A DNA stretch of 64,000 nucleotides from an uncultured Dehalococcoidales bacterium (GCA_964419575.1 CAYQQD010000001.1:7403-71402), one strand, 5' to 3'. Positions 7,771 through 30,267 are shown, counted from the first letter of the stretch. Program-made: numbers and translations. The notes: generated by a model from the letters alone, not told the origin.

Positions 7771-7815
7771 CGTTAATCAAACCTCCGCTATCTGGGTCGA
7801 AGAAAGACTATGCTT

Positions 7816-9160: not shown

Positions 9161-10321
9161 TTAGCCAGTCTTTCCCTTCTCCATCAATAATGACTTAAAC
9201 TGAGACTGGTTTTCTTTTCTGACCGATGGTTTGTTAGGCGGTTTTCGCATATCCTTTTCCCAGTGGGGATTAAATAGGAGGTCGAGGACATGCAGACTGG
9301 GCTTATGGACGGAAAGGGTCTCACGGCAGACGGCACAATAGGCAAGCATATCAAAGTGGGCTTCGGCTACCCTTTCTTTAGTCAAACTGAATACCCGCAT
9401 GGGATTAAGGGGAAGGATTAGACCTCCCTGACCACAGCATAAGGTAAGCTCTCTGGAGTGGGTTAACTCCTCTATCTGGTGCCCGGAAAGCTTGACCAAT
9501 TCCCTGACGCTGTCTTGTAACTTGGTTTCCCACCTAGCGGTACAGGAATCGTGCAGTGAGAAAGTGCGCTGACCATTTTTAGGCTGCTGAGGGACGCCCA
9601 CTTCTATCAGTACCTCATACAGCGTTTTCAGCTCAAAACTGGGGTTAGCCCGCTTAAAGGTGCGGTAGCAATCAGGGCAGGGCACAATCAATTCGGAAGC
9701 CCCCAATTTGCTCATCTCATGCTCTAATCCACCCATCGTCTCCTTAAACTGGGAATGCTCTCCCAAGCCATGATAAGGGGCACCACAGCACCTCAGGATA
9801 ATCCCGGTACCCGGTAGCTTCTTTCTAAGGTAGTCGTAGGTTGCCATGGTAAGGGAAGGCGAATAGGCTGGTAAATTGCAGCCGGTGAAGAATGCCCGCT
9901 TGCACTCAGTGGCATCTGGGTCAGGCAGGGACAGGGCAAAGGCTGGGGAAAGCGCCCATTCTACATCGTCATTGATAACTTTATGCGCCGGGAGCGGTCC
10001 TATTCCTTCCTCTACTAACAACTCACGGAGCACCAAACACAGCTCACCTATATTCACCCGGTAAGGGCAGGTCTTCTGGCATAGTTCGCATAGATTACAG
10101 GAATAGGGAATCTCGGGCTTTTCCTTAAAGTAGTCTTTCATCCCCAATAAGACCCTGCGGGCTATCTTGCGTGGGTCATAGTTCTTGTCGACCTCTCTAA
10201 CCAGGCAGCCAGCAGTGCATGTTCCGCACCCTAGGCAACGCCTCAGGTCTTCACCTTCCATCCGTGCCAAAACCTCTTCCCTGAATTTAGCATCCAGCTT
10301 ATTTACCAGTATTGGTTCCAA
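9161..10321 (-). CDS. HdrD-like Fe-S protein (HdrC-type 2x[4Fe-4S] fused to HdrB-type double CCG domain)
   Basis: 386 aa. Cluster motifs 'CLGCGTCTAGC' and 'CNLCELCQKTCP'. Two CCG-domain patterns are present: 'FFTGC...RCCGAP...PCPDC' and 'HDSC...LCCGQGG...YCAVC'. Confidence 0.8.
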   Translation of the reverse strand: MEPILVNKLDAKFREEVLARMEGEDLRRCLGCGTCTAGCLVREVDKNYDPRKIARRVLLGMKDYFKEKPEIPYSCNLCELCQKTCPYRVNIGELCLVLRELLVEEGIGPLPAHKVINDDVEWALSPAFALSLPDPDATECKRAFFTGCNLPAYSPSLTMATYDYLRKKLPGTGIILRCCGAPYHGLGEHSQFKETMGGLEHEMSKLGASELIVPCPDCYRTFKRANPSFELKTLYEVLIEVGVPQQPKNGQRTFSLHDSCTARWETKLQDSVRELVKLSGHQIEELTHSRELTLCCGQGGLILPLNPMRVFSLTKERVAEAHFDMLAYCAVCRETLSVHKPSLHVLDLLFNPHWEKDMRKPPNKPSVRKENQSQFKSLLMEKGKTG

Positions 10322-10370
10322 CTTTAACCCCCTACCATTACCTATTTATATCAAAGTTTCCGCTACTGGG

Positions 10371-11210
10371 CTAATACTCGCTAGACAACTCATTAAGCTG
10401 AGCTAGAGTAAATACGGGCCCAGCCTGGCAAACATATTTGTTGCCTATGTTGCACCGACCACATTTTCCTATCCCGCATTTCATCTTCATCTCCAGTGAC
10501 AGGATAATCCTCTGCGGTGGAAATCCAAGTTGCCTGAGAACTGGCAAGGTAAACTTTATCATGATTGGCGGACCGCAAACCACAGCATAGGCATTCTCCG
10601 GGCTGGGGGCAACCTCTTTGATAACGTTGGGGACGACCCCCACCTTTCCACGCCAGCCTTCGTCTGCCTGGTCCACGGTAAGATACAGGCCAAGGTCAGG
10701 CCTTGCTTCCCATTGTTTAAATTCGTCCTTATAAAGCAGTAAACCTGGGCGCCTAGCCCCATAGATAACGGTAACATTGCTAAACTGGCTCCGGTTCTCG
10801 TGATACAAAATGTATTTGAGTAGAGAGCGTAGGGTGGTAAAGGCAAACCCGCCGCCAACGATAACTATATTCTTGCCTTTAAACAATTCTAAGGGGAAGC
10901 AATTGCCGAGGGGACCTCTTATCCCGATTATTGCTCCTTCCTCTAGGTTGTGGAGTGCCGTAGTTAACACCCCTACCTTGTTCACCGTAAACTCAAGCGC
11001 CCCGGGTTGGGTTGGGGAAGAGGCTATACCAAAGGGGGCTTCACCTTCACCTAAAACCGATAACTGGGCAAACTGACCTGGCAAGTAGTTAAAGCTACTT
11101 TCCTCCGCCTTATTGAGAAAACTGAGGCTAAATGTCTTTATATTCTTGTCATCGGTTTCAATGACAATCTTTTCTGCTGTCATCGCTAATGGGATATATG
11201 GGTTCTTCAT
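10371..11210 (-). CDS. FAD/NAD(P)-binding oxidoreductase with C-terminal [2Fe-2S] (FlxA / AsrB / PyrK-like)
   Basis: 279 aa. Ferredoxin-reductase-type layout with C-terminal 'CGIGKCGRCNIG'. Confidence 0.8.
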   Translation of the reverse strand: MKNPYIPLAMTAEKIVIETDDKNIKTFSLSFLNKAEESSFNYLPGQFAQLSVLGEGEAPFGIASSPTQPGALEFTVNKVGVLTTALHNLEEGAIIGIRGPLGNCFPLELFKGKNIVIVGGGFAFTTLRSLLKYILYHENRSQFSNVTVIYGARRPGLLLYKDEFKQWEARPDLGLYLTVDQADEGWRGKVGVVPNVIKEVAPSPENAYAVVCGPPIMIKFTLPVLRQLGFPPQRIILSLEMKMKCGIGKCGRCNIGNKYVCQAGPVFTLAQLNELSSEY

Positions 11211-11221
11211 CTCTACTTTGC

Positions 11222-12256
11222 CTATCTATTTAATATGCTATTTAGCACCGTCCGTATATCTAGGTTCACCGGGCAGTCTTTAATGCACCGACCACACCCG
11301 ACGCAGGCGGCCACATTATGGTTATCCACAAAATACTTAAACTTATGCATTACCCTTTGCCTCATCCTTTCCTTCCCGGTGGGTCTGGGATTAACCCCTG
11401 ATGCCTCCAGGGTAAACAGGGGGAAGGAGCAAGTATCCCAGATACGAACCCTTCTCCCCATTTGGTCTAAAGTCTCATCAGCTATATCAAAGCAATGACA
11501 GGTGGGGCAGAGATAGGTGCAAACGGCACAGCCAAGGCACTTCTCGTGTAGCCAGTCCCAGAAGGGGTCTTCAAACATCCCGTCCAATTTCTTCTTTGTC
11601 TCCCCCGTCTCTACTTTGGATTTAATCAAGGTGCTTGCCCTCTGAGTAACCTTTCGCATTAAAGACAGACTACGCCGTCCTGCTTCCCTAAACTGGCTGT
11701 GTTTTTTAACCAGCTGCTTGCCCCTGTCGGTAACTGCTTGAACCACGTATTCCTGGTCGATATCTATGAGAAGCAGGTCTGAGCCGTCTGTGGAGAAAGG
11801 ACCTCCGCCTAAAGAGGTGCAGAAACAGGTACTACTTGGCTGGTTACAACCGATGGCCATGACTAACGTCCTTTCTCTTTTAGCCGTATAGTAGACATCT
11901 TTATACTCCTGGCTATTAAATATATTATCAAAGATAACCAGGCTTCTGGCATCACAAGGGCGGATGCCAAAGATTACCATCGGCTTATCTTCAAAGGTGG
12001 GCTCTTCTATCCCTAACCCCTCTCCACCTAAACGGTAATTAAATAACACCTCAGACTGAGGGAAGAAAATTTCCTTGGGTGGTTTCTTGGAGTTGACATA
12101 ATCTAGCAGGACTTCACTGCCTGAATGAATCTCCTGAAATGCAATAAAGCCGCCCTGTTTCACCGGGGCAAATACCTTATACTCACTGATTAAGCTATCT
12201 AAGAAGCGAGCCAGCTCGCTTTTGGCGATTTTCATTTCCTTCATAGTCATCTTCAC
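11222..12256 (-). CDS. 4Fe-4S dicluster protein (FlxB / AsrA-like)
   Basis: 344 aa. 'CLGCAVCTYLCPTCHC' and 'CVGCGRCIKDCP'. It sits between the FlxA-like and FlxC-like genes. Confidence 0.7.
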   Translation of the reverse strand: MKMTMKEMKIAKSELARFLDSLISEYKVFAPVKQGGFIAFQEIHSGSEVLLDYVNSKKPPKEIFFPQSEVLFNYRLGGEGLGIEEPTFEDKPMVIFGIRPCDARSLVIFDNIFNSQEYKDVYYTAKRERTLVMAIGCNQPSSTCFCTSLGGGPFSTDGSDLLLIDIDQEYVVQAVTDRGKQLVKKHSQFREAGRRSLSLMRKVTQRASTLIKSKVETGETKKKLDGMFEDPFWDWLHEKCLGCAVCTYLCPTCHCFDIADETLDQMGRRVRIWDTCSFPLFTLEASGVNPRPTGKERMRQRVMHKFKYFVDNHNVAACVGCGRCIKDCPVNLDIRTVLNSILNR

Positions 12257-12266
12257 CGGTTGATAT

Positions 12267-13217
12267 TTACCTTATAAATTGTTGAGGGTCATCCAGACTA
12301 AAGGCAGCCAAAGGTGGCATATCCTCAAGATTTACTCCTGCTTGGTAATGGAATAATTCTTTAACATCCTTTTCTATCTTCTTGGTAAGCTTTCTGATAT
12401 CAATACCCATCGGGCAGGCTCGGTCACAGGCACCGCAATCAACACATCGCCCGGCAGTGTGAAAGGCACGGATAATGTGAAACATTGAAGTATCGCTAAG
12501 ATTAGTGGTCTTCCCGATCCATTGGGGCTGGGAGCTATCGACAAAACACTCCTGGCAGTAGCATAACGGGCAAGCATTCCTACAGGCATAGCATCTAATA
12601 CATTTACTAACCTCGTTAGTGAAACTTTGCCATCTCCTATCAGCGGGTTGAGCTTCAAACTCCTTCACCTCTCCATACTCATCAATCCCTTGTTTTTCTT
12701 CTACTTTATCTCCAATTAGGACGTCATATATTACCGGGTTCCTATAGCTACAGGTGTTGCAGGAGTTATGGAGAAATTCTGCCTTGTTTATAGTCTCGGT
12801 AAAGTCACTGCCCTTGAGGATGACCCTTTCGGTTGCTTCATCGGCTTCTAGAATTTCCTTCCCGTCCAATTTAGCTTCGATCTTTCTCCTATCAATCATC
12901 CCGTGGCATGGAATACCAATAATGAGCACTTGCTCCCTAGCCACCTGCTTCTCTTTAATGAGACTAATAATTGAGCGGGTATCACAGCCTTTGGCAACAA
13001 TGCCGACCTTTTCCTTTCTCCCCCACAGATACCTGGCAAGGTTATTCTCGCAACTGGCATTCCAAATGAGCTTTTCTGCTTCTTCGCTCGTCCTAACAAA
13101 ACAGGGAGTGCTACGCAGAGGGAGGGTGCCTGTTTCAAACCCGATTATGAGGTCAACCCTCTTCTGGTCAAGCAATTTCTTGGCTGTATCCCTTATCATA
13201 ACTGATGTATTCAGCAT
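12267..13217 (-). CDS. Fe-S protein (FlxC-like; FrhB-like N-terminal part plus 2x[4Fe-4S])
   Basis: 316 aa. 'CIRCYACRNACPLC' and 'CVDCGACDRACP'. Confidence 0.65.
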   Translation of the reverse strand: MLNTSVMIRDTAKKLLDQKRVDLIIGFETGTLPLRSTPCFVRTSEEAEKLIWNASCENNLARYLWGRKEKVGIVAKGCDTRSIISLIKEKQVAREQVLIIGIPCHGMIDRRKIEAKLDGKEILEADEATERVILKGSDFTETINKAEFLHNSCNTCSYRNPVIYDVLIGDKVEEKQGIDEYGEVKEFEAQPADRRWQSFTNEVSKCIRCYACRNACPLCYCQECFVDSSQPQWIGKTTNLSDTSMFHIIRAFHTAGRCVDCGACDRACPMGIDIRKLTKKIEKDVKELFHYQAGVNLEDMPPLAAFSLDDPQQFIR

Positions 13218-13226
13218 AGGCTTACC

Positions 13227-13664
13227 TTAATCCAACTTTTTAACCAACTCCTTTGCCGGTCCCAAAGCCCTGACTTCCTCGGTAATCTCTGTTATCAGCT
13301 CGGCAAACCTTTTCCCTTCGGCAGCAGATACCCAGGCGAAGTGGACTCGCCCTTTCTCAATACCCAGGTATTCAAGGAGATTATTCAGAATGGCAAACTT
13401 CCTCCTGGCAACATAATTACCACTGAGATAGTGGCAATCACCGGGGTGGCACCCTGAAACCAGGACGCCATCGGCGCCACGCTGCAGGCTTTTTAAGATT
13501 AGCAGCGGACTTATTCTACTTGAGCAGGGGACGCGGATAATCCGAGTATTGGGCGGGTATTGAAGTCGGCTTACCCCGGCTAAGTCAGCGCCAGCATAGC
13601 TACACCAATTACAGAGAAAGGCGATTATTTTGGGTTCCCACCCGTTTACTTTTTCCTCTTGCAT
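13227..13664 (-). CDS. mvhD: MvhD / FlxD-type hydrogenase-delta-like protein
   Basis: 145 aa. 'FLCNWCSYAGADLAG' and 'GCHPGDCHY' signature. Confidence 0.85.
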   Translation of the reverse strand: MQEEKVNGWEPKIIAFLCNWCSYAGADLAGVSRLQYPPNTRIIRVPCSSRISPLLILKSLQRGADGVLVSGCHPGDCHYLSGNYVARRKFAILNNLLEYLGIEKGRVHFAWVSAAEGKRFAELITEITEEVRALGPAKELVKKLD

Positions 13665-13707
13665 TTTCTATACCCGTTATCTTAATTCCCCAGCGCTTAT
13701 CACTGTC

Positions 13708-16700
13708 CTAAGAAGCATTAATTAGGGCTAAAATCTGGGCATTACTGAACCCCTTCATATTCATTGCCCCACATATACAGGAAGAAACACATGCCCCACA
13801 CCCCTTACACAGAGCCTCATTGACCTTGGCTACCTTCTTGTCAGCATCAATGTCTACGGCTTGGAAGGGACAAATCAAGGCACAAACGCCGCAACCACTA
13901 CATTTGCTCTCATCGACAAGCGAGACCAATCCCCCGACTTCAATTACGTCCTTAGATAAGATGGTACCAGCCCTGGATGCTGCTGCCTTAGCCTGGGCGA
14001 TAGTTTCCTCAATAAACTTAGGGCTATGAGCCAGACCGCACATAAACACGCCTTCAGTAGCAAACTCCACCGGGCGTAGTTTCATGTGGGCTTCTAGCAA
14101 AAAGCCGTCCTCATTTAGGGGCACTTTGAATAGCTGGGACAATTTCTTGTTATCGGCAGCAGGAATGGCAGCTACGGCTAAAGCCAGTATATCGGTGTCT
14201 ATGACTAAATCCTCGCCTAATATCGGGTCTCTCATGGTAACCCGGAGCCGGTTCTGATTGTCCTCGGTTACAGTTTCCACCCTAGGTTTATCATCGGTGT
14301 CATAGCGAATGAAGATTACCCCTTTCTCTCTGGCTTCCCGGTAGTAATCTTCCTTAAAGCCATAGGTCCTGATATCCCGATAGAGGACATATATATTCAT
14401 CTTCGGTTTTGCCTCTTTTAGTTTCAGGGCACATTTTATAGACTCGCTGCAGCACACCCGGCTACAATAGGGGCGGTCAGTTTGCCTAGAACCAACACAT
14501 TGAATAATCACCGCATTATCGCAGCCAGCAATTCTACCGTTGCCTGTGGCAACCTCTTCTTCCAGTTCAAGTAAGGTCATCACCCTGGCGTCTTCCCCAT
14601 AAAAGTATTCGCTTGGCTTATACTCCTCGCCCCCGGTAGCAATAATCACCACTCCGTGCTTGAGTTCGTGGGTATCTCGGTTAGCCCCGACCTCTATCCG
14701 GGTAGTAAAATTGCCGACATAACCAGTGGCTTCAACAATATTGGCATTGGTATATACCTGGATTAGGGGACTTTCACAGACCCTGGTGATAAGGTCCTGG
14801 AGATAGGCCTGGATGTCATCGCCCTCCAGGGTATGTCGTATCCTTCTGGCTATTCCTCCCAACTTTTCGCCTCTCTCAACCAGATAGACCTCAAATCCTT
14901 GTTCAGCCAGGTTCAAGGCAGCCACCATCCCGGCTATACCGCCGCCAATAACTAAGCCACGGTGAATTACCTCCAGGGGAGTCTGGGCTACAGGGTGGAT
15001 AAGCCTGGCTTTGGCTACTGCCATTTTTACCAATTCCTTGGCTTTCCCGGTAGCCTCCTCGGGATAATCTTTATGCACCCAGGAACACTGGTCTCGAATA
15101 TTAGCCATCTCAAATAGATACCGGTTTAACCCTGCCTGTCTAATTGTCTCTTGAAACAGTGGTTCGTGGGTGCGGGGGGTGCAAGAAACAACCACTACTC
15201 GATTGAGACTGTGCTGTCTAATCTTCTCCTTTATCCGCTCCTGGGTGTCTTGAGAGCAGGTGTAAAGATTAGCCTCAGCATAGACGACATTGGGCAGGCT
15301 AGCAGCATATTCCTTTACCTCGGGGACATTTACCACTCCAGCAATATTGATGCCGCAGTGACAGACAAAAACCCCAATCCTCGGTGGCTCTCCCCTTATA
15401 TCTCTTTCCGGGGGGTACTCCTTTTTCTTTACCAGGCTATTACGTACCGAGGAAAGTGAGGCAGAAGCTGAAGCTGCGGTGGCACTCGCCTGCATCACTG
15501 TTTCGGGGATGTCTTTAGGACCCTGAAAAGCCCCACAAACGAATATACCTGGCTTAGAGGTCTCAACAGGCAAGAAACCATCAGTTTTACAGAACCCATA
15601 TTTATTGAGTTCGATTCCCAGTCTACTAGCTAGCTCCTCAGCCCCTTTAGATGGCTCAAGCCCAACCGAGAGGACAACCAGGTCAAATTCCTCCTTTATC
15701 AGCTTACCGTCCTCAGCCTCATACTTTATCCTCAGATTTTTTGTCTCTGGTATCTCCTCAATTACCGAGGGTCTACACCTGATAAACCTGACCCCGTGCT
15801 CACTCATTGCCCGCTCATAGTAGGCCTCAAACCCTTTGCCGAAAGTCCGCATATCCATAAAGAAGATGGCGGTGTCCAAGGGGAGACGGCTGTGCTCCTT
15901 AGCCACTATTGCCTCTTTGATGGCATAGGTACAACAGACTCCTGAGCAGTAGCCTTTACCTTGATTTAAATCTCTTGAACCGACGCATTGAATAAAGGCA
16001 ATTTTTTGAGGAATATCCCTATCAGAGGGTCTTAATAGTTCACCCTGATACGGTCCAGAGGCGCTTAGCATCCGCTCAAACTCAATGCTAGTGACGACAT
16101 TAGGGTACTTACCGTACCCGTAGTTCAGCATAAGAGCCACCTCGGGCAACCCATATCCAGGGCAAAGAATGACAGAGCCGACATTTATTGTCTGGATTTC
16201 CTCCTTATCTGAATACTGTACTGCTTTGGCTAGGCACAACTTGTCACATAAGCCGCATCCAATACATTTTTCCCTGTCGATAGCGTAAGCCCTTGGCACT
16301 GCTTGTGGATACTTTACATAAATAGCAGCCCGGTTACTCAGCCCCTCATCAAAGGAATTGGTTGTTCTTACTGGGCAATGTTTGGCACACTCGCCACACC
16401 CGGTACATTTATCAATATCGATGTACCGCGCCTTCTTAGCTAGGGTAACTTGGAAATTGCCGGCTTCGCCTTTTATGTCTTTTATCTCGGCATTAGTCAT
16501 GATACTAATATTTAAATGCCGTCCACACTCAACCAATTTGGGCGACAGGATGCACATTGAGCAATCATTGGTGGGGAAGGTCTTATCAAGTTGAGCCATC
16601 ACCCCGCCAACCGCCGGTGACTGTTCGGCTAAATAGACATAGAACCCTGATTCAGCTAAGTCAAGGGCTGCCTGTATACCCCCGATACCGCCACCAATAA

Positions 16701-16743
16701 CTAGCACCGCTCCCGTTTTGCCATTTAAGCTAACTTTAGCCAA
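13708..16743 (-). CDS. hdrA: giant HdrA-like flavoprotein (two HdrA-type cores in one chain), copy 1
   Basis: 1011 aa. Two dinucleotide loops are present ('VIGGGIGGIQAALDLAESG' at the N-terminus and 'VIGGGIAGMVAALNLAEQG' near aa 600). It also carries 'FPTNDCSMCILSPK', two 'QCVGSR...YCS.VCC' motifs, 'VFVCHCGINI' and four CxxCxxCxxxC motifs. Confidence 0.85.
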   Translation of the reverse strand: MAKVSLNGKTGAVLVIGGGIGGIQAALDLAESGFYVYLAEQSPAVGGVMAQLDKTFPTNDCSMCILSPKLVECGRHLNISIMTNAEIKDIKGEAGNFQVTLAKKARYIDIDKCTGCGECAKHCPVRTTNSFDEGLSNRAAIYVKYPQAVPRAYAIDREKCIGCGLCDKLCLAKAVQYSDKEEIQTINVGSVILCPGYGLPEVALMLNYGYGKYPNVVTSIEFERMLSASGPYQGELLRPSDRDIPQKIAFIQCVGSRDLNQGKGYCSGVCCTYAIKEAIVAKEHSRLPLDTAIFFMDMRTFGKGFEAYYERAMSEHGVRFIRCRPSVIEEIPETKNLRIKYEAEDGKLIKEEFDLVVLSVGLEPSKGAEELASRLGIELNKYGFCKTDGFLPVETSKPGIFVCGAFQGPKDIPETVMQASATAASASASLSSVRNSLVKKKEYPPERDIRGEPPRIGVFVCHCGINIAGVVNVPEVKEYAASLPNVVYAEANLYTCSQDTQERIKEKIRQHSLNRVVVVSCTPRTHEPLFQETIRQAGLNRYLFEMANIRDQCSWVHKDYPEEATGKAKELVKMAVAKARLIHPVAQTPLEVIHRGLVIGGGIAGMVAALNLAEQGFEVYLVERGEKLGGIARRIRHTLEGDDIQAYLQDLITRVCESPLIQVYTNANIVEATGYVGNFTTRIEVGANRDTHELKHGVVIIATGGEEYKPSEYFYGEDARVMTLLELEEEVATGNGRIAGCDNAVIIQCVGSRQTDRPYCSRVCCSESIKCALKLKEAKPKMNIYVLYRDIRTYGFKEDYYREAREKGVIFIRYDTDDKPRVETVTEDNQNRLRVTMRDPILGEDLVIDTDILALAVAAIPAADNKKLSQLFKVPLNEDGFLLEAHMKLRPVEFATEGVFMCGLAHSPKFIEETIAQAKAAASRAGTILSKDVIEVGGLVSLVDESKCSGCGVCALICPFQAVDIDADKKVAKVNEALCKGCGACVSSCICGAMNMKGFSNAQILALINAS
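15542..15797. repeat. 256-bp tract identical to 19356-19611 (inside hdrA copy 1)
   Basis: Base-by-base comparison of the two paralogues shows a constant offset of 3814 bp with no mismatch over 256 bp. Flanks are clearly diverged. Confidence 0.9.
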
Positions 16744-16757
16744 CTCTGTTTGACCGC

Positions 16758-17519
16758 CTATTTCTTGATGTATTTAGGTGTCCTGTGCTCAAGGGTGTGA
16801 AGGTGCACCTCCCCCGTCTGCTCAAGGTCGACCAGATATGAGGAAATAAGCTTTGGGTCAAGGCTGGTAGCTTGAGCTATCTCTCTAACCGACATCGCCT
16901 GTTGTTGTAAAAGGATAGCTATCCAGCTCTTAATATATTCGTCACGAATTGCGGTATCCAAAAGCGACTCAAATTTATCTGGAGATATCTTCTCGCCAAA
17001 CACATTTCCCTTCTCTACTAGACCAATCTCATTACCCACCAGCCAGCGTACTTTTTCCGTCTGTAAGGTAGCTCTAACCGCCCGGAGACGCTGGCGTAAG
17101 GGTTCATCGGTGCCGTCGGCTTTAAGCGGACCGATAGCTCTGACTTTATTGATGAATGAGGTAACGATGTCAACAAACCTCTGCCCCTCAGCGGCTGATA
17201 CCCAGTCAAGGCGAAGCCTTTCCGGATGAACCCCGGCAATATCCAGGAGTCTTTTAGTCATTTTCATCTTTTTCTCTGCGTAGTAGTTACCAGTGCCATA
17301 GTGGCAATCACCAAAGTGGCAACCTAAAACCAGAACCCCGTCCAAACCGGCGAGAAAGGCGGTAATAATAAACACCGGGTCAACCCGGCCTGAGCACATA
17401 GTCCTAATATTCACCACATTAGCCGGGTATTGGAATCGGGATATGCCAGCCAAATCAGCGCCAGCATAAGAACACCAGTTACACAAGAAAGATAGTATTC
17501 TAGGCTCGAAATTTGACAT
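16758..17519 (-). CDS. mvhD: MvhD-like domain fused to a ~120-aa C-terminal extension ending in a winged-helix-like segment
   Basis: 253 aa. N-terminal 'FLCNWCSYAGADLAG' and 'GCHFGDCHY'. The C-terminus 'MSVREIAQATSLDPKLISSYLVDLEQTGEVHLH' looks like a wHTH recognition unit. Confidence 0.75.
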   Translation of the reverse strand: MSNFEPRILSFLCNWCSYAGADLAGISRFQYPANVVNIRTMCSGRVDPVFIITAFLAGLDGVLVLGCHFGDCHYGTGNYYAEKKMKMTKRLLDIAGVHPERLRLDWVSAAEGQRFVDIVTSFINKVRAIGPLKADGTDEPLRQRLRAVRATLQTEKVRWLVGNEIGLVEKGNVFGEKISPDKFESLLDTAIRDEYIKSWIAILLQQQAMSVREIAQATSLDPKLISSYLVDLEQTGEVHLHTLEHRTPKYIKK

Positions 17520-17527
17520 TTTCCCCT

Positions 17528-20500
17528 TTATGCCACTGCCAAGGCATTAATCTGGGCTATTAGCTCGTCATCGGTAAAGTGCCCCATGGTTATTGCCTGC
17601 TGCGGGCAACTAGCGGCACACAAACCACAACCGGTACACAGTGCCGCAATCGTCTCAGCCTTATTGACTCCGTTCACCGGCTTCAGCCGGATAGCCTCAA
17701 AGGCACAAACTGACTCACACAGCCCGCAGCCAATGCATTTTTCGGCATCAACAGAGGACACGATGCCCTCTACTGTGACATAGCCTTTGGATAATGGAAT
17801 TGAGGCTCGCCCGGCAGCCCCCATAGCTTGAGAAATTGATTCGTCTATCATCTGGGGAGAGTGAGCTATGCCGCACAGGAAAATACCTCGGGTGCTTGAA
17901 TCCGCCGGTCTAAGCTTCACATGGGCTTCCATCAAGAAACCATCCTCATTAACCGGAGTCTTCAGCAGCCTAGCTAGCTCATCAACTTTATTGGGGATGA
18001 TGCCGCTACTCAGTGCCACTAAGTCACAATCGATGGCTACTTTTTCACCCAGCATTAGCTCCAATACCGCTACATTGAGTTTGCCATTCTTTGAGGCAAC
18101 TTCTGGCTTATGGCTATCGTCATATCGGATAAACGTTACACCTTCAGCCCTTGCCGTGGTATAAAACTCCTCCCTAAACCCATAGGTCCTTACATCTTTA
18201 TACAGGACATATATATTTGCCGATGGATTTATTTCTTTTATCTTTAGGGCATTTTTGATAGCCTGGCTACAGCATACCCGGCTGCAATACGGTCTTTCCT
18301 GGTTACGGGAACCAACACACTGAATCATTACTACATCGTTTACAGCCTTCTCTTCCAAGGTATGTGTCGCCAGTTTGTGTTCTAATTCCTTCTGGGTTAC
18401 CACATTAGGGTGTTCCCCATACAGATATTCTTTCGGCTTATATTCTTGGCCGCCGGTGGCGACGATAATAACCCCGTGCTCCAAAGTCTCCTCTGCTTCT
18501 GACCTTCTTACCGTAGTCCTAAAATTGCCAATATAGCCGGTAATGTCTTTAATCTCAGCATTGAGATAAACCTCGATTAACCTGTGATGGTGCACCCTGT
18601 CTATGGTCTCTTTCAGAAGCTGCTGAACATCTTTCCCGTCCAAAGTCCAGTAAATATCCCGCAGGTTACCTCCAAGCTTATCGCTTTTCTCAACCAGAAA
18701 GCACATGAATCCTTGCTCAGCTAGCTTCAGGGCTGCTGTCATCCCAGCTATCCCTCCGCCGATAACCAGAGCCTTATTGACCACGCTCACACTGAGTTCA
18801 GTTAATGGCTGGATAAGCCTGGCTTTGGCTACCGCCATTTTAACTAATTCCTTAGCTTTCTCGGTAGCCAGCTCCGGTTGCCCTTTATGCACCCAGGAGC
18901 ACTGGTCTCGGATATTAGCCATCTCAAAGAGGTATTTGTTTAGCCCTCCCTGTCTAATGGTTTCCTGGAATAAGGGCTCGTGAGTTCGGGGGCTGCAAGC
19001 CGCCACGACCACTCGATTAAGGTCATGCTCCTTAATCCTCTCCTTTATCAGCTCTTGGGTGTCTTGAGAGCAGGCATAAAGATTAGCCTCAGCATAGACC
19101 ACGTCGGGGAGGCTAGCAGCATATTCCTTTACCCCGGGGACATCGACCACCCCACCAATATTGACGCCGCAATGGCAGACAAAAACTCCTATCCTCGGTG
19201 GCTCTCCTATTATATCCCTTTCTGGGGGATACTCCTTTTTCTTTATCAGGCTATTGCGGGCAGGGGAGAGTAGGGCGGCGGCTAAAGCAGTGGCAGCACT
19301 GGCTTGAGTTACTGTTTCCGGGATATCTTTTGGTCCGCTAAAGGCGCCACTGACAAATATACCTGGCTTAGAGGTCTCAACAGGCAAGAAACCATCAGTT
19401 TTACAGAACCCATATTTATTGAGTTCGATTCCCAGTCTACTAGCTAGCTCCTCAGCCCCTTTAGATGGCTCAAGCCCAACCGAGAGGACAACCAGGTCAA
19501 ATTCCTCCTTTATCAGCTTACCGTCCTCAGCCTCATACTTTATCCTCAGATTTTTTGTCTCTGGTATCTCCTCAATTACCGAGGGTCTACACCTGATAAA
19601 CCTGACCCCGTATTCATTCATTGCCCGCTCATAGTAGGCTTCAAAGCCTTTGCCAAAGGTCCGCATATCCATAAAGAAGATGGCGGTGTCTAGCGGGATA
19701 GGGCTGTGTTCCTTAGCCACTATTGCTTCTTTAATAGCATAAGGGCAACAGACTGAGGAGCAATAACTACTCTGTGGAGATTCCCCTCGTGAGCCAACAC
19801 ATTGTATCCAAGCAATCTTTTGGGCTTGTTGCCTGTCCGAAGGTCTTAGTAACTCACCTTGATACGGTCCAGAGGCACTTAGAATTCTTTCAAACTCAAT
19901 ACTGGTGACGACATTAGGGTATCTGCCATACCCATACTGCGGAACAAGGCTAGCTTCAAACTTGTTAAAGCCGGGACACAGGATGATTGACCCTACCTGT
20001 AGCTCAATAGTCTGATCGGTTTGGTTGAAATCGACAGCCTTAACCGAGCAGAACTTCTCGCAAGCTCGGCATTTACCCGTTTTAAAGTAAACACAAAGCT
20101 CCTTATCAATAACCGGCACATTGGGTATTGCCTGAGCATAAGGGATGTAGATGGCTTTTCTCTTGCCCAAGCCTTGGTCGAACTCGCTATCCGTTTTCCA
20201 CGGGCACTTCGTTTGGCAGATGCCACATCCGGTACACAGAGATTCGTTTACATACCTAGCTCGCTTGTTAACCCTGACCTTAAAGCTGCCCGGTTTCCCG
20301 CTAACATCCAAGATGTCGGCATAGGTTATGATGTCAACATTTAAATTCCGGCCACATTCCACCAGTTTTGGGGAGAGGATACATATGGAGCAGTCATTGG
20401 TGGGGAAGGTCTTGTCAAGTTGAGCCATCACCCCACCAATAGCCGGCGATTGCTCAACCAAATAGACATAGTACCCAGACTCGGCTAGGTCCAGGGCTGC

Positions 20501-20584
20501 CTGAATACCGCCAATACCCCCACCGACAACCAGTACCGCCCCGGTTTTATGGTTGACAGTCGGCTGGGCACTTGACTTCGCCAT
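17528..20584 (-). CDS. hdrA: giant HdrA-like flavoprotein, copy 2
   Basis: 1018 aa, collinear with copy 1. Same motifs: 'VVGGGIGGIQAALDLAESG', 'VIGGGIAGMTAALKLAEQG', 'FPTNDCSICILSPK', 'VFVCHCGVNI'. Confidence 0.85.
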   Translation of the reverse strand: MAKSSAQPTVNHKTGAVLVVGGGIGGIQAALDLAESGYYVYLVEQSPAIGGVMAQLDKTFPTNDCSICILSPKLVECGRNLNVDIITYADILDVSGKPGSFKVRVNKRARYVNESLCTGCGICQTKCPWKTDSEFDQGLGKRKAIYIPYAQAIPNVPVIDKELCVYFKTGKCRACEKFCSVKAVDFNQTDQTIELQVGSIILCPGFNKFEASLVPQYGYGRYPNVVTSIEFERILSASGPYQGELLRPSDRQQAQKIAWIQCVGSRGESPQSSYCSSVCCPYAIKEAIVAKEHSPIPLDTAIFFMDMRTFGKGFEAYYERAMNEYGVRFIRCRPSVIEEIPETKNLRIKYEAEDGKLIKEEFDLVVLSVGLEPSKGAEELASRLGIELNKYGFCKTDGFLPVETSKPGIFVSGAFSGPKDIPETVTQASAATALAAALLSPARNSLIKKKEYPPERDIIGEPPRIGVFVCHCGVNIGGVVDVPGVKEYAASLPDVVYAEANLYACSQDTQELIKERIKEHDLNRVVVAACSPRTHEPLFQETIRQGGLNKYLFEMANIRDQCSWVHKGQPELATEKAKELVKMAVAKARLIQPLTELSVSVVNKALVIGGGIAGMTAALKLAEQGFMCFLVEKSDKLGGNLRDIYWTLDGKDVQQLLKETIDRVHHHRLIEVYLNAEIKDITGYIGNFRTTVRRSEAEETLEHGVIIVATGGQEYKPKEYLYGEHPNVVTQKELEHKLATHTLEEKAVNDVVMIQCVGSRNQERPYCSRVCCSQAIKNALKIKEINPSANIYVLYKDVRTYGFREEFYTTARAEGVTFIRYDDSHKPEVASKNGKLNVAVLELMLGEKVAIDCDLVALSSGIIPNKVDELARLLKTPVNEDGFLMEAHVKLRPADSSTRGIFLCGIAHSPQMIDESISQAMGAAGRASIPLSKGYVTVEGIVSSVDAEKCIGCGLCESVCAFEAIRLKPVNGVNKAETIAALCTGCGLCAASCPQQAITMGHFTDDELIAQINALAVA
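19356..19611. repeat. 256-bp tract identical to 15542-15797 (inside hdrA copy 2)
   Basis: See the partner repeat. The shadow ORFs 15605-15820 and 19419-19634 give almost the same 71-aa translation. Confidence 0.9.
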
Positions 20585-20692
20585 TACATTCCCCCGAAAA
20601 GAATAAGGTGGGTAACATAGTTAATGCCAGAGTTGCTGGCAATGAGACCATCCCAGCTAGTTGTGGTATTCAGACCAAGTGGTGGTGCTCAA

Positions 20693-21433
20693 CTACTTCT
20701 CTGGTTTAGCTGGTTTAGGAATATTTGTTGGGTTTACTAATTCGGTTAGTTGCTGTGATTCCCAAGTCCGGTTATACCACGGGAAACCTATCAGCGGGGT
20801 AACGATCCCCCTCTGTCTCCTTGACCGTAAGATTATCTCGCAAGTTATCTCCGCCACTAGGGCACATAGCTCAGCACAGTATACAGACCACATTGAGAAA
20901 ACCTCGCCCGACCTAACCCGCTCTATCTGCATGAGGTCAAGACGGTCAACCGGAGCCAGGCGCTTGCCAAAATGGGCATCACACAAATCGCCACAGCGGA
21001 CATGACCATTAGTACGTTGGGCAAACCGTTCCATAAGTTCAAACACCCGTGCCTGGGCTAAAGTAAAATTGCTATGCCCTTTAGACCGAGGTCCGCCTTC
21101 CTCGGTAAAGTCCACCCGCCCGAACGCTAGACCAATAGCAGCGATTCCTCCCACTAGGGCACAGCAAATCTCGTTACCACCAAAACCTCCAGAGAGGGTG
21201 GTCATAAGCACTACCGACTCCCTCGTCCCCAGACCAAGATGAAGGGATAAGGGATATAAAACTGTCTGACCACAAATCCGATACTTAAGCTGTAACTCCC
21301 GCGAGTCCCGAACCACCCTCCTTATAATCGCCTCATCATCGGTTTCATCCCGACTCCAGAACTGCCAGTCCTTCCGGTGCTGTTCATCCTTGAAGACATC
21401 GGCTAAATGAGCCATTAGTTTCCCATATACCAT
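20693..21433 (-). CDS. C_GCAxxG_C_C family protein (putative redox-active)
   Basis: 246 aa. 'GGFGGNEICCALVGGIAAIG' fits the C-GCAxxG core, with further Cys pairs 'RCGDLC' and 'YCAELC'. Confidence 0.65.
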   Translation of the reverse strand: MVYGKLMAHLADVFKDEQHRKDWQFWSRDETDDEAIIRRVVRDSRELQLKYRICGQTVLYPLSLHLGLGTRESVVLMTTLSGGFGGNEICCALVGGIAAIGLAFGRVDFTEEGGPRSKGHSNFTLAQARVFELMERFAQRTNGHVRCGDLCDAHFGKRLAPVDRLDLMQIERVRSGEVFSMWSVYCAELCALVAEITCEIILRSRRQRGIVTPLIGFPWYNRTWESQQLTELVNPTNIPKPAKPEK

Positions 21434-21708
21434 TTGTCGATTCTCCTCCTAAGTTTTAATGCTATCGACCGTGAGTAGAAATTCCTTTCACTAGCCCTAT
21501 GCTGGTAACTAAATTGACAGCTTGAATTGTACTATACACAAAAGGGAAGCGTCAAACAATTTGATGGCGAGGGGAAGGGTCAGCGCAGTTTTGCTCTCCA
21601 GCACCGACTAGAGAGATGGCTGGAGTTTTGATACAATCGGTTGGAAGAAAAGGCGGGCGAGTATTTTGGTTCTAGATTAACAAAGAGGCTATAAAGGGAG
21701 GCACATAG

Positions 21709-22368
21709 ATGGAACTTGAGATCCTAGAGAGCTTGAAAAGAGCCGTCCTAGAATACGATACCGAAGCTGCAACCAGCTGGGCCAGAAGAGCCGTGGCGAC
21801 AAAGGTAAATCCAGTCAAGGCTCTGGATATCCTTACAGAGGCTATCAGACAGGTAGGTGACCGCTTTGGTAGAGGAGAACTCTGGCTTCCTGATTTAGTT
21901 GGGGCAGCTGATGCCATGCAAGCTGCTATGCCCATTCTAGAAGAAGAGCTTAAGAGAACAGGGGCGAAGCGAGAAACCCTGGGGGTTGCTGTCGTCGGGA
22001 CAGTTTTTGGGGACATCCATAGTATAGGGAAGTCTATGGTATGTACCATGCTCACTGCCGGCGGCTTTGAGGTGCATGACCTGGGTGTGAATATCAAGGC
22101 TGAGGAGTTCCTTGAGGCAGTAGAGAAATATCAAGCCGACATCTTGGCTATGTCAGCCCTCTTGACCACCACCGCCGTAGAGCAGAGAAAAGTTATTGAT
22201 GCCCTCAAGGAGAAAGGTATCAGGGAGAAGATAAAGGTCATGGTAGGTGGGGGCGCCATAACCGCAGAGTTTGCCAAAAGCATTGGGGCTGATGGATATG
22301 ACCCCACTGCTCCTGGTGCTGTGGAGCTAGCCAAGAGACTGGTTGGGAAAAGCAGTTGCTCTAGTTAG
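21709..22368 (+). CDS. corrinoid (B12-binding) protein, MtaC/MttC-like
   Basis: 219 aa. 'GDIHSIGK' (DxHxxG), 'MSALLTTT' (SxL) and 'VMVGGGA' (GG), plus an N-terminal helical cap domain. Confidence 0.85.
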   Translation: MELEILESLKRAVLEYDTEAATSWARRAVATKVNPVKALDILTEAIRQVGDRFGRGELWLPDLVGAADAMQAAMPILEEELKRTGAKRETLGVAVVGTVFGDIHSIGKSMVCTMLTAGGFEVHDLGVNIKAEEFLEAVEKYQADILAMSALLTTTAVEQRKVIDALKEKGIREKIKVMVGGGAITAEFAKSIGADGYDPTAPGAVELAKRLVGKSSCSS

Positions 22369-22715
22369 CTTGGTGGCGTTGGTCAGGCATATCGCAGCAT
22401 CGATGGCGGTAAAACCTGGTACGAAGCGCATAAGCCGCCTACCGGAGGGGCTATCTCCTGGATGAGTTGTGATCCCAACACCGATGATTGCTCACTTGTT
22501 TATTGCGTTTCCACTGATTTCTGGGATGTCCTTGTCCCTCGAGACATTGATGTTCCTGTCGCTCGGATGATGGTGGCAACACCTGGGAGCGTGTCCTTAC
22601 CTCAGGTCTGAAGCTACTGGTAGATGGCAGAGAAATTGAAGTCGGACCACACCTCAAGTGTCCAGTTTCAGGGGTTCACTCCAGGCACCCCAGAAGACAG
22701 AGCAAAAAAGAATAA
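22369..22715 (+). pseudogene. remnant of a BNR/Asp-box repeat protein with an internal frameshift and no start
   Basis: Two Asp-box motifs lie in different frames: 'SIDGGKTW' (frame of 22369, stop at 22609-22611) and 'SDDGGNTW' (frame of 22560, stop at 22713-22715). Confidence 0.5.
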
Positions 22716-22800
22716 GAATAAAATCTATATGTATTTTCAAGATAGACTTTAGAACAACAAAACACTGCCACTATTTTGGTAGAGCAGTCTTAATTGGTGT

Positions 22801-24009
22801 TTAAGGGACTCTTCTTTTACTATCGCCTTTAGGGTGCATCGGCAATGCTTGTATTGGGCAATCAGGAGCAAGGCACTTCTCGCATCGCATGCATTGTATT
22901 GCCGCAGAGTCATAGCCTTCTGTGTACGGGCAAACAGCTATGCATTGAGCACAGTATATGCCGTTATCCAGCCAAGCTTGCAGGCATTGTTCCGCTTGTA
23001 TGTACCATTTCTTAACACCAGGATTATTGTTTTCGTTATATCCCTTCATTTTTCTATCACTGAAGCTTATAGCGTGGGCAGGACATGCTTCGGCACAAAC
23101 CAAGCACTGGTTACAGAATTCTGTTAATCCGAAGTCGACAGGCTTATCAGTATTTAGCGGCATATCTGTCAGGACCTTGCATAGCCTGATGCAAGAACCG
23201 TAGTCGGTTGTTATCAGCATTCCATTTCTGCCAAGCTGACCCAGGCCTGCACTTATGGCTAAAGGTATGCTTAAAGCAGTGTCATTCATACATGGGATCG
23301 CATTATAGCCAAGACCTCGTATACACTCAGCCAGAGATATAGATGCTATGCCCATCTTGGAATATCCGAGGTCGGTTCCTGCACTTACACCTGCCCCCGG
23401 GCATTGCTGGATAAGGGCTTTATCCATTTCAACAGCCATCACTACTGCCTTATTTACTGAGTTGGGGATAACTAGAGTGCCGTTTCTTTCCAGTGGTACT
23501 TCGACATTGTCAAATATAAAGCGTTTTCCTACCTGTCTTTCGTAGACCCATCTTGCGTCAAGCTCGGCAACGCCAACAAGACAGGCGCCATATAGCTTGG
23601 CAGCATGTTTTATTGCAGGGGTAAGCTTATCCGGGTCAGTTTCTGTACGCCATTTACTCATTGGTTCTGGTACAAACAGGGGGCTCCACTTTAAAAACTG
23701 AGTATTGGCATTTTGGTCGCCATAACTTCCCAAGATGTAATTTAATGCGACTGCTCCAAACCCGACAGCGTAATCTATCCGTGATTTCCCAGGTGTGCTA
23801 AGTTGAACGTTTTTCATCATGTCTGGCCCTATGTGCGCCATGATAAAACCTGCTATATCCATAATGCCAGTTACAGGTTTACCAGAAAGCCTTTCAGTAA
23901 GTGTTACGAATCCCTCCTTAGACGAATCGAATCTTTTGTATATTTTATTGTCAACCTCGTACATTTCATCTAGAGATTTCCTAGTCTTAGGCTGTGCTAC
24001 TGTAGCCAT
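22801..24009 (-). CDS. rdhA: reductive dehalogenase homologue (RdhA-like) with no TAT signal and no adjacent rdhB
   Basis: 402 aa. 'YKRFD' N-terminal block, 'CNQCLVCAEACP', and an RdhA-type second cluster 'C-x10-CAQCIAVCP'. The N-terminus 'MATVAQPKTRKSLDE' lacks RRxFLK. GAGGAGG RBS. Confidence 0.8.
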   Translation of the reverse strand: MATVAQPKTRKSLDEMYEVDNKIYKRFDSSKEGFVTLTERLSGKPVTGIMDIAGFIMAHIGPDMMKNVQLSTPGKSRIDYAVGFGAVALNYILGSYGDQNANTQFLKWSPLFVPEPMSKWRTETDPDKLTPAIKHAAKLYGACLVGVAELDARWVYERQVGKRFIFDNVEVPLERNGTLVIPNSVNKAVVMAVEMDKALIQQCPGAGVSAGTDLGYSKMGIASISLAECIRGLGYNAIPCMNDTALSIPLAISAGLGQLGRNGMLITTDYGSCIRLCKVLTDMPLNTDKPVDFGLTEFCNQCLVCAEACPAHAISFSDRKMKGYNENNNPGVKKWYIQAEQCLQAWLDNGIYCAQCIAVCPYTEGYDSAAIQCMRCEKCLAPDCPIQALPMHPKGDSKRRVP

Positions 24010-24090
24010 TTCTTAAATTCAACCTCCTCAAAATTTAAATTATAGCGATAGTTGAATGTCATAGTGGGGTGCCCCCGATATTAGTACCAC

Positions 24091-24267
24091 TTAGAATGAG
24101 AGACTGCCCACTTTTTTCAAAGGTTGCTTAACTCCTTTTATCTGGTTCTCCTCGTAGTATCTCCTAGCAAACTCTGCCGGTGTCAGGTAATCCAGCGAGC
24201 TGTGTGGTCGGTAGTTATTATACTCTTGCCTAAAGGCTTCCACAATGGTCTGAACTAGCTCATACTC
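24091..24267 (-). mobile_element. 3' remnant (58 codons) of an rve-type (IS3/IS481-like) transposase
   Basis: My own translation gives 'TIVEAFRQEYNNYRPHSSLDYLTPAEFARRYYEEN...', the conserved C-terminal integrase-core tail. It is bounded upstream by an in-frame TAA and has no catalytic domain. Confidence 0.65.
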
Positions 24268-24579
24268 TTAGGAAAAAGTACCAAGTTAGACATTACAGGT
24301 GAAACGATTGACAGTGAAGTTGATGATTCAGTATTGATAGTAAGTCAGAGGTAACGAAACGCCCTTTTGTGGAATGACAGCTGTGCCGGGTAGTTCTAAG
24401 ACTTTGCTCGGGAGGCATAGGCTTCCTTCGGCAGTATAGCATTTTACTTGAGCCCCAACGATAACCGCGCTTTGTCCTTTTATATTTAAATCTAGACGAA
24501 AGCGAGTGATTACCTCTGCAAATCCCCCTGGCTGGGGGAAGTATTACCAAGTTTAGTCAGCTAGAACCTGCAAAGACTA

Positions 24580-24608
24580 TTGACAAACTTCCCATTTTAT
24601 GCTATTGT
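24580..24608 (+). promoter_or_regulatory. candidate sigma70-type promoter of the Rrf2-led array
   Basis: TTGACA (24580-24585), 17-nt spacer, TATTGT (24603-24608), about 40 nt upstream of the ATG at 24651. Confidence 0.35.
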
Positions 24609-24650
24609 TGAGTAAAAGAATCAACTTAGTCAACAAAGGAGGACAGCTTA

Positions 24651-25091
24651 ATGAAGCTCTCTACCAGAGGACGATATGGAACCAGGATGCTCTTGGATTT
24701 GGCTCTCCAACACGATAGACCGGTTGCACTAAAAGATATAGCTCAAAGGCAGCAGATTTCACTACCGTACCTAGAGCGGCTAATAGCTCCTCTCATAGCC
24801 GGAGGCATAATACGGAGCGCTCGTGGCGTAAGGGGTGGCGTTTGGCTAGCCCAGCCTCCTGAGCAGATAAAGCTGAGCACAGTCATTCAACTTCTTGAGG
24901 GTTCAGTTGCTCCGGTAGAGTGTGTTAATGATCCAGCGATATGCTCCCGCTCCGAATTATGTGTCACCCGGGACATCTGGACTAAGATCAAAAGGGCGAT
25001 AAACGAGGTCTTGGAGTCTACGACCTTGCAGGATTTGGTCGAGGAGCAAAAGAGAAAAGAACGACATGAACAGGTGACATACTACATATAG
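24651..25091 (+). CDS. Rrf2-family transcriptional regulator (IscR-like, likely cluster-ligating)
   Basis: 146 aa. 'MKLSTRGRYGTRMLLDLA' wHTH, with three Cys in 'CVNDPAICSRSELC'. Confidence 0.85.
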   Translation: MKLSTRGRYGTRMLLDLALQHDRPVALKDIAQRQQISLPYLERLIAPLIAGGIIRSARGVRGGVWLAQPPEQIKLSTVIQLLEGSVAPVECVNDPAICSRSELCVTRDIWTKIKRAINEVLESTTLQDLVEEQKRKERHEQVTYYI

Positions 25092-25142
25092 GTTTACTAG
25101 ATTAATAGCTCGGATGGAGTATGTAGAGGGGGAATAACTTCT

Positions 25143-27357: not shown

Positions 27358-27381
27358 GATTAACATAAGGAGGAAATTGAG

Positions 27382-28371: not shown

Positions 28372-28399
28372 AGAAGTTCAATAAAAAGGTGGGTTTATT

Positions 28400-30255: not shown

Positions 30256-30267
30256 AGGAGTGGAGTA

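Follow-up and report, generated by a model that had tools for sequence, protein, structure and literature searches.

Does a gene for a reductive dehalogenase (RdhA) homolog form a functional unit with the genes that lie beside it? The question is raised by a 64,000-nucleotide stretch of DNA from an uncultured Dehalococcoidales bacterium (GCA_964419575.1, CAYQQD010000001.1:7403-71402), here called the window, in which a 402-residue RdhA homolog is encoded next to a corrinoid protein and a C_GCAxxG_C_C protein, with a block of Hdr/Flx-like genes beyond them. An initial annotation, made from the sequence alone, took the corrinoid protein for an orphan and proposed that this protein and the Hdr/Flx machinery might serve the RdhA homolog; the five sequence observations on which it drew were all found to be accurate. 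Comparison with other genomes leads us to a different account, to which we assign a probability of roughly 0.7: three unrelated genes appear to have become adjacent through recent rearrangement in one species-level lineage of a Dehalococcoidia-like bacterium, in which the RdhA is intact and has been split from its usual partner. The locus comprises the following elements.

20693..21433, minus strand: C_GCAxxG_C_C family gene, 246 amino acids (aa), PF09719 match
21709..22368, plus strand: corrinoid protein gene, 219 aa, apparently of the MtgC/MtbC-like, methyltransferase-cognate type (Pfam B12-binding_2 and B12-binding)
22369..22800, no strand: 432-bp spacer between the convergent corrinoid and rdhA-like genes, with no YcaO remnant
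22801..24009, minus strand: rdhA-like gene, 402 aa, predicted cytoplasmic RdhA-family corrinoid and iron-sulfur (Fe-S) reductase of a four-cysteine-tail subclade (TIGR02486)
24091..24243, minus strand: relic of a transposase C terminus (integrase core), just upstream of the rdhA-like gene (PF13683, rve_3)

Conservation and proposed rearrangement of the gene neighborhood

The window proteins were compared by tblastn with loci from 80 species-representative genomes, each taken with 10-kb flanks (loci are cited by L numbers). Co-occurrence of rdhA-like genes with orphan corrinoid proteins across genomes, which had been put forward as a check, was seen in 0 of 80 genomes: no homolog of the corrinoid protein or of the C_GCAxxG_C_C protein lay within 10 kb of an rdhA homolog, and conserved RdhA-corrinoid and RdhA-C_GCAxxG_C_C pairings, which had no matches in these loci, were rejected as candidates. 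The gene layout of the window recurred only where the RdhA was at least 98% identical (L001, L137, and L180 to L184, from several independent samples). Because adjacency is restricted to variants that are at least 98% identical and is absent from the 80 genomes, we regard the three genes as neighbors and not as partners.

The point of rearrangement appears to lie just upstream of rdhA, where the transposase relic sits between the rdhA-like gene and a gene for an Rrf2 regulator. The relic scores 34.2 bits against rve_3 (cutoff, 26.5), matching the last 29 of the 67 model positions (39 to 67), and it coincides with the place, at about 24116 to 24371, where synteny between the window and L137 (99% identical) breaks. 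By its sequence and position, the relic marks a rearrangement junction.

These data bear directly on the model proposed at the outset, in which RdhA, the corrinoid protein, the C_GCAxxG_C_C protein, and Hdr/Flx act as one unit, the corrinoid protein loading or re-reducing B12 and Hdr/Flx providing low-potential electrons. The genes are indeed adjacent, several metagenomes from this one population show their layout unchanged, no methyltransferase partner for the corrinoid protein occurs within the 64-kb window, and at 5 of 80 loci, distant rdhA homologs that lack the C-terminal tail described below have HdrA-like genes within 10 kb: the Asgard loci L066, L072, and L076 (Promethearchaeota, Hermodarchaeota, and Heimdallarchaeota), a Bathyarchaeota metagenome-assembled genome (L065), and an unclassified archaeon (L059). 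However, the genes of the window are convergent or divergent rather than co-oriented; their adjacency is found in 0 of 80 genomes and in no closest relative at 72 to 82% identity, in which YcaO stands in the position of the corrinoid gene; the orthologs of the corrinoid protein are linked to MttB at 57 of 71 loci, and those of the C_GCAxxG_C_C protein are found elsewhere; and the transposase relic and the synteny break flank rdhA. RdhA enzymes hold their own corrinoid tightly, and no corrinoid protein is known to act as a donor for them. We consider this model very improbable, and the suggestion that the corrinoid protein or Hdr/Flx serves the RdhA homolog is not upheld. As a lead, the corrinoid and Hdr/Flx helpers can be set aside, since their adjacency is confined to one species. 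The presence of HdrA near tail-less archaeal rdhA genes may hint at how other cytoplasmic RdhAs, outside the clade considered here, obtain their electrons.

An Rfam gathering scan of the window returned one tRNA only, with no cobalamin riboswitch or other RNA element near the three genes, and a promoter and terminator scan of 20400 to 24800 gave counts not above those for shuffled sequence. Within the spacer, an open stretch of 80 codons (22369 to 22608, plus strand) begins right after the corrinoid stop codon and holds one BNR/Asp-box-like repeat, SIDGGKTW; the Pfam BNR match is weak (E = 0.021), and the stretch may be a fragment of a disrupted gene.

YcaO linkage and the catabolic module of relatives

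In the closest non-conspecific relatives, a YcaO gene of about 438 aa lies directly downstream of rdhA on the same strand (L185, 82% identity; L082 and L083, 77%; L084, 73%; L002 and L085, an uncultured Dehalococcoidales genome, 73%), at a distance of 7 to 94 bp where gene calls were available. The pair is also present in Atribacterota (L003), a deltaproteobacterium (L004), Peptococcaceae (L006 and L007), and another Bacillota genome (L008), and the YcaO-linked relatives together span 50 to 82% identity to the window RdhA. Because the pair occurs in each of the two lineages that diverge at the base of the tail clade in a neighbor-joining tree, its linkage is probably ancestral to that clade. 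A tungsten-type aldehyde:ferredoxin oxidoreductase (AFOR)-family gene (about 632 aa) lies upstream in L002 to L008; in L006 and L008, the set further includes an IclR regulator, two family-I coenzyme A (CoA)-transferase subunits, an acyl-CoA dehydrogenase, and a family-III CoA-transferase; and L082 and L084 carry a CoA ligase, an acyl-CoA dehydrogenase, and an HD-domain gene, with a TRAP transporter in L082 as well. The RdhA/YcaO loci are placed as follows.

L002: 9971-12573
L003: 4892-7412
L006: 1859-10735
L008: 8005-16761
L082: 8001-10526
L084: 8001-10574
L185: 311-2239

Neither a YcaO gene nor a remnant of one was detected in the 432-bp spacer or in the entire 64-kb window (tblastn with three queries and E values up to 10; best E, 2). 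The window is accompanied in this respect by Dethiobacter (L005), whose rdhA homolog also has no adjacent YcaO, and by the Clostridia branch of the tail clade (40 to 49% identity), which showed no consistent partner gene, its neighbors being GCV_H, OsmC, ArsP, DUF2254, an aminotransferase, and an aldo-keto reductase.

Separation from YcaO and the catabolic module raises the prospect that the window gene is a stranded copy, its function having ceased and its decay not yet begun. The missing YcaO and the transposase relic adjoining rdhA would suit such a history, as would the ratio of non-synonymous to synonymous substitution rates (dN/dS) of 0.56 between the window and L137 genes, a value drawn from very small counts (10 non-synonymous and 5 synonymous differences); at the level of the population, there were too few differences for dN/dS to decide on decay. 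Against it, the reading frame is unbroken, and no column that is invariant in the family alignment has changed in the window protein; dN/dS relative to the YcaO-linked relatives is 0.12 to 0.17, the values among those relatives being 0.12 to 0.20; five contigs from different samples encode one identical RdhA that is a single residue off that of the window; and further clade members do without an adjacent YcaO. We hold a stranded copy to be highly unlikely, and on these comparisons the window rdhA is best read as an intact gene that has moved away from YcaO and the catabolic module.

Identity and localization of the RdhA homolog

The residues and motifs of the RdhA homolog to which we refer below are encoded at these positions.

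23362..23364, minus strand: Tyr216 codon, aligned with the catalytic Tyr246 of PceA (HMMER alignment to 4uqu_A)
23185..23187, minus strand: Arg275 codon, aligned with Arg305 of PceA (HMMER alignment to 4uqu_A)
23080..23115, minus strand: first Fe-S motif, CNQCLVCAEACP, residues 299-310, cysteines invariant
22927..22986, minus strand: second Fe-S motif, C-x10-CxxCxxxCP, residues 342-361
22855..22893, minus strand: extra C-terminal motif, CMRCEKCLAPDCP, residues 373-385, hallmark of the subclade

The protein scores 185.4 bits against the NCBIfam profile TIGR02486 (cutoff, 160.35) and 50.5 bits against the epoxyqueuosine reductase (QueG) model TIGR00276 (cutoff, 200). Its best sequence match in the PDB is PceA, the respiratory tetrachloroethene dehalogenase of Sulfurospirillum multivorans (4uqu; E = 8.8e-57; residues 96 to 365), followed by Desulfitobacterium-type PceA (8q4h), NpRdhA, and then QueG (35 to 41 bits); the score for PceA is 196 bits versus 80 bits for NpRdhA, whose match spans only the core, residues 187 to 364. 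An AlphaFold2 model built with 39 homologs (mean predicted local distance difference test [pLDDT] score, 85.8; predicted template modeling [TM] score, 0.88) ranks the structures similarly in Foldseek, with TM scores of 0.75 to 0.78 for PceA (30% identity), 0.57 to 0.61 for NpRdhA (0.35 when normalized to the target), and about 0.35 for QueG. Both RdhA-type cluster motifs reported earlier are present: in the alignment of 39 sequences, C299, C302, C305, and C309 of the first are invariant, as are C342, C353, and C360 of the second, with C356 in at least 90% of the sequences. Y216 and R275, the counterparts of PceA Tyr246 and Arg305, are also invariant.

The N terminus contains no RR motif, and no membrane helix was found in the protein, the Kyte-Doolittle maximum of 1.15 over 19 residues being under the usual cutoff. 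Inspection of every open reading frame (ORF) of at least 25 aa in 22300 to 24700 revealed no rdhB-like small membrane ORF on either flank; the sole hydrophobic ORF there is 33 aa long. The absence of a twin-arginine translocation (TAT) signal and of an rdhB-like anchor, as described in the initial annotation, thus stands. The protein differs from the respiratory RdhAB type, which has a twin-arginine signal and an adjacent rdhB (the latter looked for within about 600 bp on each side), and, at 402 aa and without a reductase domain, from the catabolic NpRdhA/BhbA type. In the light of the profile scores and the predicted model, it is a cytoplasmic, soluble member of the RdhA family without a TAT signal or anchor, with a predicted PceA-type fold, and is distinct from QueG; the earlier proposal of a soluble B12 enzyme agrees with this.

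Placement with QueG, which had been named as the outcome that would speak against that proposal, was rejected. QueG belongs to the same superfamily, carries cobalamin and two [4Fe-4S] clusters, and is cytoplasmic, but the score of the window protein is far below the TIGR00276 cutoff, the fold match is poor, and the sequence alignment is confined to the ferredoxin part; it is because of these scores and of the PceA-first fold ranking that we assign the protein to RdhA and exclude QueG. The likeness to PceA (4uqu/4ur3) extends to the best sequence match, the best predicted fold match, both Fe-S motifs, and the Tyr246 and Arg305 equivalents, but the window protein has no TAT signal, RdhB anchor, or membrane helix, possesses its own N-terminal region, and bears an extra four-cysteine tail. 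With the self-sufficient, NAD(P)H-linked NpRdhA and BhbA, it is predicted to share a cytoplasmic, non-respiratory character, B12 with two [4Fe-4S] clusters, and a part in carbon catabolism; NpRdhA, however, is about 700 aa long with a vestigial B12-binding domain and is a much weaker match in sequence, with a lower TM score in fold.

Cytoplasmic, TAT-less RdhA homologs are widespread, occurring in subsurface Dehalococcoidia, Atribacterota, Bacillota, and archaea. Homologs lacking both TAT signal and rdhB, which the initial annotation had described as known, are documented for marine Dehalococcoidia and Desulfatiglans (PMC6129605), and a "simplified cytosolic type" of about 395 aa is described from Chloroflexota and Desulfobacterota in a further report (PMC12219181), which also places regulators of the IclR and MarR families and genes for beta-oxidation in the vicinity of rdhA-like genes of the cytosolic kind. 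The window protein resembles these published enzymes in its length of about 400 aa, its lack of a signal peptide and rdhB, its Chloroflexota host, and the IclR and beta-oxidation genes of its relatives; it differs in that the passages concerned (PMC6129605 and PMC12219181) make no mention of a four-cysteine motif or of linkage to YcaO or AFOR. The second report likens its cytosolic group to NpRdhA (PMC12219181), whereas the window protein is clearly nearer to PceA.

The four-cysteine tail and its clade

The extra C-terminal motif noticed at the outset is genuine and atypical of RdhAs. C373, C376, C379, and C384 are invariant in 39 homologs with 42 to 82% identity, and alignments to the solved PceA and NpRdhA structures stop at query residue 363 to 365, before the tail. 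More than 1,300 homologs of the protein were found at E values of 1e-10 or lower; the best 120 are nearly all TAT-less and 386 to 426 aa long, apart from three longer proteins (about 685 aa) and a few fragments, and come from Bacillota (Heliomicrobium, Dethiobacter, Alkalibacter, and "Candidatus Contubernalis"), Atribacterota, and metagenome bins. The tail was then surveyed in 84 RdhA homologs from species-representative genomes and metagenome contigs. The motif is present in 21 of the 84, which form a single neighbor-joining clade together with two sequences with short C termini (L004, a frameshifted ORF call, and L011, at a contig end). It is absent from the other 61, nearly all of which have no cysteine at all past the second cluster motif and whose sources include Bathyarchaeia, Asgard archaea, Desulfobacterota, Bipolaricaulota, and others. 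The hosts of the tail clade are Dehalococcoidales, Atribacterota, Bacillota, and a deltaproteobacterium, its members are TAT-less RdhAs of about 400 aa (390 to 410 aa), and its Dehalococcoidia-like subgroup includes the window protein, with L185 as sister. The invariance of the four cysteines in the 39 homologs shows that the extra motif did not arise by chance, and by the neighbor-joining tree it marks a coherent subclade of TAT-less RdhAs.

The third and fourth tail cysteines are 3 to 7 residues apart, depending on the clade member, giving the consensus CxxCxxCx(3-7)C, with CxxCxxCx4CP in the window protein; pLDDT values in the tail of the AlphaFold2 model are 71 to 78. The Cx6Cx2Cx5C loop of endonuclease III forms a compact single metal or [4Fe-4S] site, and by analogy we infer that the tail spacing fits such a site better than half of a rigid two-cluster ferredoxin motif. 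The tail is probably an additional metal or Fe-S site. We found no description of a third, C-terminal four-cysteine motif in RdhAs in a literature search that was thin on subscription journals.

A putative role for the tail clade

If the tail does form an extra Fe-S or metal center, a low-potential cytoplasmic donor such as ferredoxin could feed electrons in through it, and these would then pass two [4Fe-4S] clusters to cob(I)alamin, which would reductively cleave the bond between carbon and a leaving group in a small organic acid or CoA ester, with Tyr216 as the likely proton donor. In the relatives, the gene has its place in a catabolic module of IclR, tungsten-type AFOR, RdhA, YcaO, CoA-transferases or CoA ligase, acyl-CoA dehydrogenase, and TRAP transporter; the window rdhA appears to have been relocated from this module, and the corrinoid protein beside it is probably the cognate carrier for an MttB-type methyltransferase encoded elsewhere.

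The linkage to YcaO admits another possibility, namely, that the tail clade consists of non-dehalogenases, YcaO and ATP turning an amide or carbonyl oxygen into a phosphate leaving group that the cob(I)alamin enzyme would remove; the window RdhA would then either rely on a YcaO gene in another part of the genome or no longer have this role. The tight, co-oriented RdhA-YcaO pair across Dehalococcoidales, Atribacterota, a deltaproteobacterium, Peptococcaceae, and other Bacillota speaks for it, as do its members on both sides of the basal split, and the cultured organisms that bear the clade (Heliomicrobium, Dethiobacter, Alkalibacter, and Youngiibacter) are not known to be organohalide respirers. 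We also found no literature joining YcaO with a reductive dehalogenase or RdhA, which counts in its favor as weak evidence, the search having been thin on subscription journals. Yet the dehalogenase-type Tyr/Arg pair is invariant, no YcaO adjoins rdhA in the Clostridia branch, in Dethiobacter (L005), or in the window, the evidence adduced is one of gene linkage, and no such chemistry is known, so that we regard the proposal as unlikely. Quite unlikely, too, is its fuller form, in which the tail-clade RdhA and YcaO, often with AFOR and CoA enzymes, would constitute an undescribed cytoplasmic system: YcaO and ATP would activate a non-halogenated substrate, the B12 enzyme would remove the activated group, the tail would serve for electron entry or partner docking, and the window copy would be a YcaO-less variant.

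Several points weigh against our preferred account of a recent rearrangement that moved an intact dehalogenase-family gene out of a catabolic module. The tail clade has no characterized member, and the substrate, the electron donor, and the tail metal proposed here are predictions. The older Pfam dehalogenase model, PF13486, gives the RdhA homolog 19.6 bits, below its cutoff of 24.3. The layout of the window is stable across several independent metagenomes, and comparative genomics alone leaves room for a lineage-specific co-option of the neighbors. Finally, the window covers 64 kb of the genome, so YcaO, AFOR, or mttB may be encoded elsewhere in it.

A clearly delimited subclade, marked by an extra site of four invariant cysteines and having YcaO and a module for organic-acid catabolism as its conserved genomic partners, emerges as a better-supported lead than the corrinoid and Hdr/Flx helpers. 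It also cautions metagenome surveys against reading tail-clade genes as a sign of organohalide respiration.

The corrinoid protein

The 219-aa corrinoid protein, convergent with rdhA as first reported, bears the DxHxxG motif, which supplies the histidine ligand to the corrinoid cobalt, in the following place.

22012..22029, plus strand: DxHxxG motif, DIHSIG, residues 102-107 of the corrinoid protein

It scores 191.1 bits against TIGR02370 (cutoff, 215.3), about 190 bits against the MtgC models (cutoffs, 310 to 370), and about 190 bits, under the curated cutoff, against the MtbC model. No MttB, MtaB, URO-D, or pterin-binding family was found among 55 scanned proteins of the 64-kb window (all non-shadow ORFs of at least 150 aa plus the Rrf2 gene), in keeping with the earlier remark that no methyltransferase partner lies nearby. 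Orthologs at 75 to 88% identity number in the hundreds, and the few with a source label are from Dehalococcoidia or Chloroflexota.

The context of the gene was surveyed at 80 metagenome loci with orthologs at 54 to 99% identity, of which the 71 with at least 200 bp of downstream sequence were informative. An MttB-superfamily gene (about 503 aa) lies directly downstream on the same strand at 57 of the 71. A minority of orthologs stand alone, some between inositol phosphatase and short-chain dehydrogenase genes and others 2 to 5 kb from homologs of the ABC-transporter genes of the window. Because an MttB gene adjoins the orthologs at 57 of 71 loci, the protein appears, by gene context, to be a methyltransferase-cognate carrier whose gene is mobile within the lineage and whose MttB-type partner would lie outside the window. 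The orphan-corrinoid interpretation therefore fails in substance: the initial annotation had foreseen that it would fall if the gene belonged to a methyltransferase system, and orthologs at 54 to 88% identity are linked to MttB in those 57 loci. With the MtgC and MtbC proteins of MttB systems, the protein shares its domain architecture, the DxHxxG motif, scores of about 190 bits, and orthologs with an mttB-family gene downstream; it differs from them in that here and in a few related lineages the gene is alone, with no methyltransferase in the window, and in that its scores fall under the equivalog cutoffs.

The C_GCAxxG_C_C protein and the Hdr/Flx block

Beyond the corrinoid gene, and divergent from it across a 275-bp spacer as the initial annotation had it, the C_GCAxxG_C_C gene encodes a protein that passes PF09719 (45.7 bits; cutoff, 27), falls below TIGR01909 (39.1 bits; cutoff, 47.4), and has the motif CCALVGG. 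The gene is co-directional with the Hdr/Flx-like block, 108 bp upstream of it.

9161..20584, minus strand: Hdr/Flx-like gene block, given for context only

The block contains two tandem double-HdrA proteins of about 1010 aa that flank a 253-aa MvhD/FlpD protein, together with two Fe-S proteins, an NAD-binding/FeS subunit, and an HdrD-like CCG protein. In the 80-locus survey, Hdr/Flx was not linked to four-cysteine-tail homologs in other genomes. Orthologs of the C_GCAxxG_C_C protein (70 to 82% identity) occur in three differing contexts, all of them free of adjacent corrinoid, rdhA, and Hdr genes, and each is followed by an ORF of 115 to 120 aa (L174, 8772-9134; L176, 8799-9152; L178, 8800-9147) for which there is no Pfam hit on record and which has no match in the window. 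The possibility that the gene is the first of an Hdr/Flx operon was rejected, since its orthologs never adjoin Hdr genes and precede the ORF of about 117 aa instead. It likewise appears to be an independent unit whose neighbors are not conserved.

In L176, the C_GCAxxG_C_C gene is followed by methyltransferase and radical S-adenosylmethionine (SAM) genes, which in the window sit 12 kb off, beyond the Hdr/Flx block. Because L176 joins the genes that flank the block in the window, this arrangement suggests that the block is an insertion relative to L176. L094 matches the window at 14922 to 15940 and at 20254 to 22379, with about 0.8 kb less DNA between the two than in the window. The flanking pair consists of a SAM methyltransferase beside a radical-SAM protein with an N-terminal HMPTM zinc ribbon (window 6430 to 8601, minus strand; L176, 10091 to 12223); in L176, the C_GCAxxG_C_C gene and small ORFs immediately precede the pair, and an 86-aa ORF among them is 76% identical to window 8842 to 9099.

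Other genes in the window

Past the transposase relic, a plus-strand sulfur amino-acid cluster (24651 to 31491) encodes the Rrf2 (CymR-like) regulator, a ThiF/MoeB-type adenylyltransferase, a class-V aminotransferase resembling cysteine desulfurase, a CysK-like PALP enzyme, a hexapeptide acetyltransferase (CysE-like), a Cys/Met-metabolism pyridoxal phosphate enzyme, and a second PALP enzyme. Farther along, on the minus strand (56457 to 59977), a glycyl-radical enzyme (pyruvate formate-lyase-like, 822 aa) is encoded with its radical-SAM activase, in what is apparently a Dehalococcoidia-like genome.

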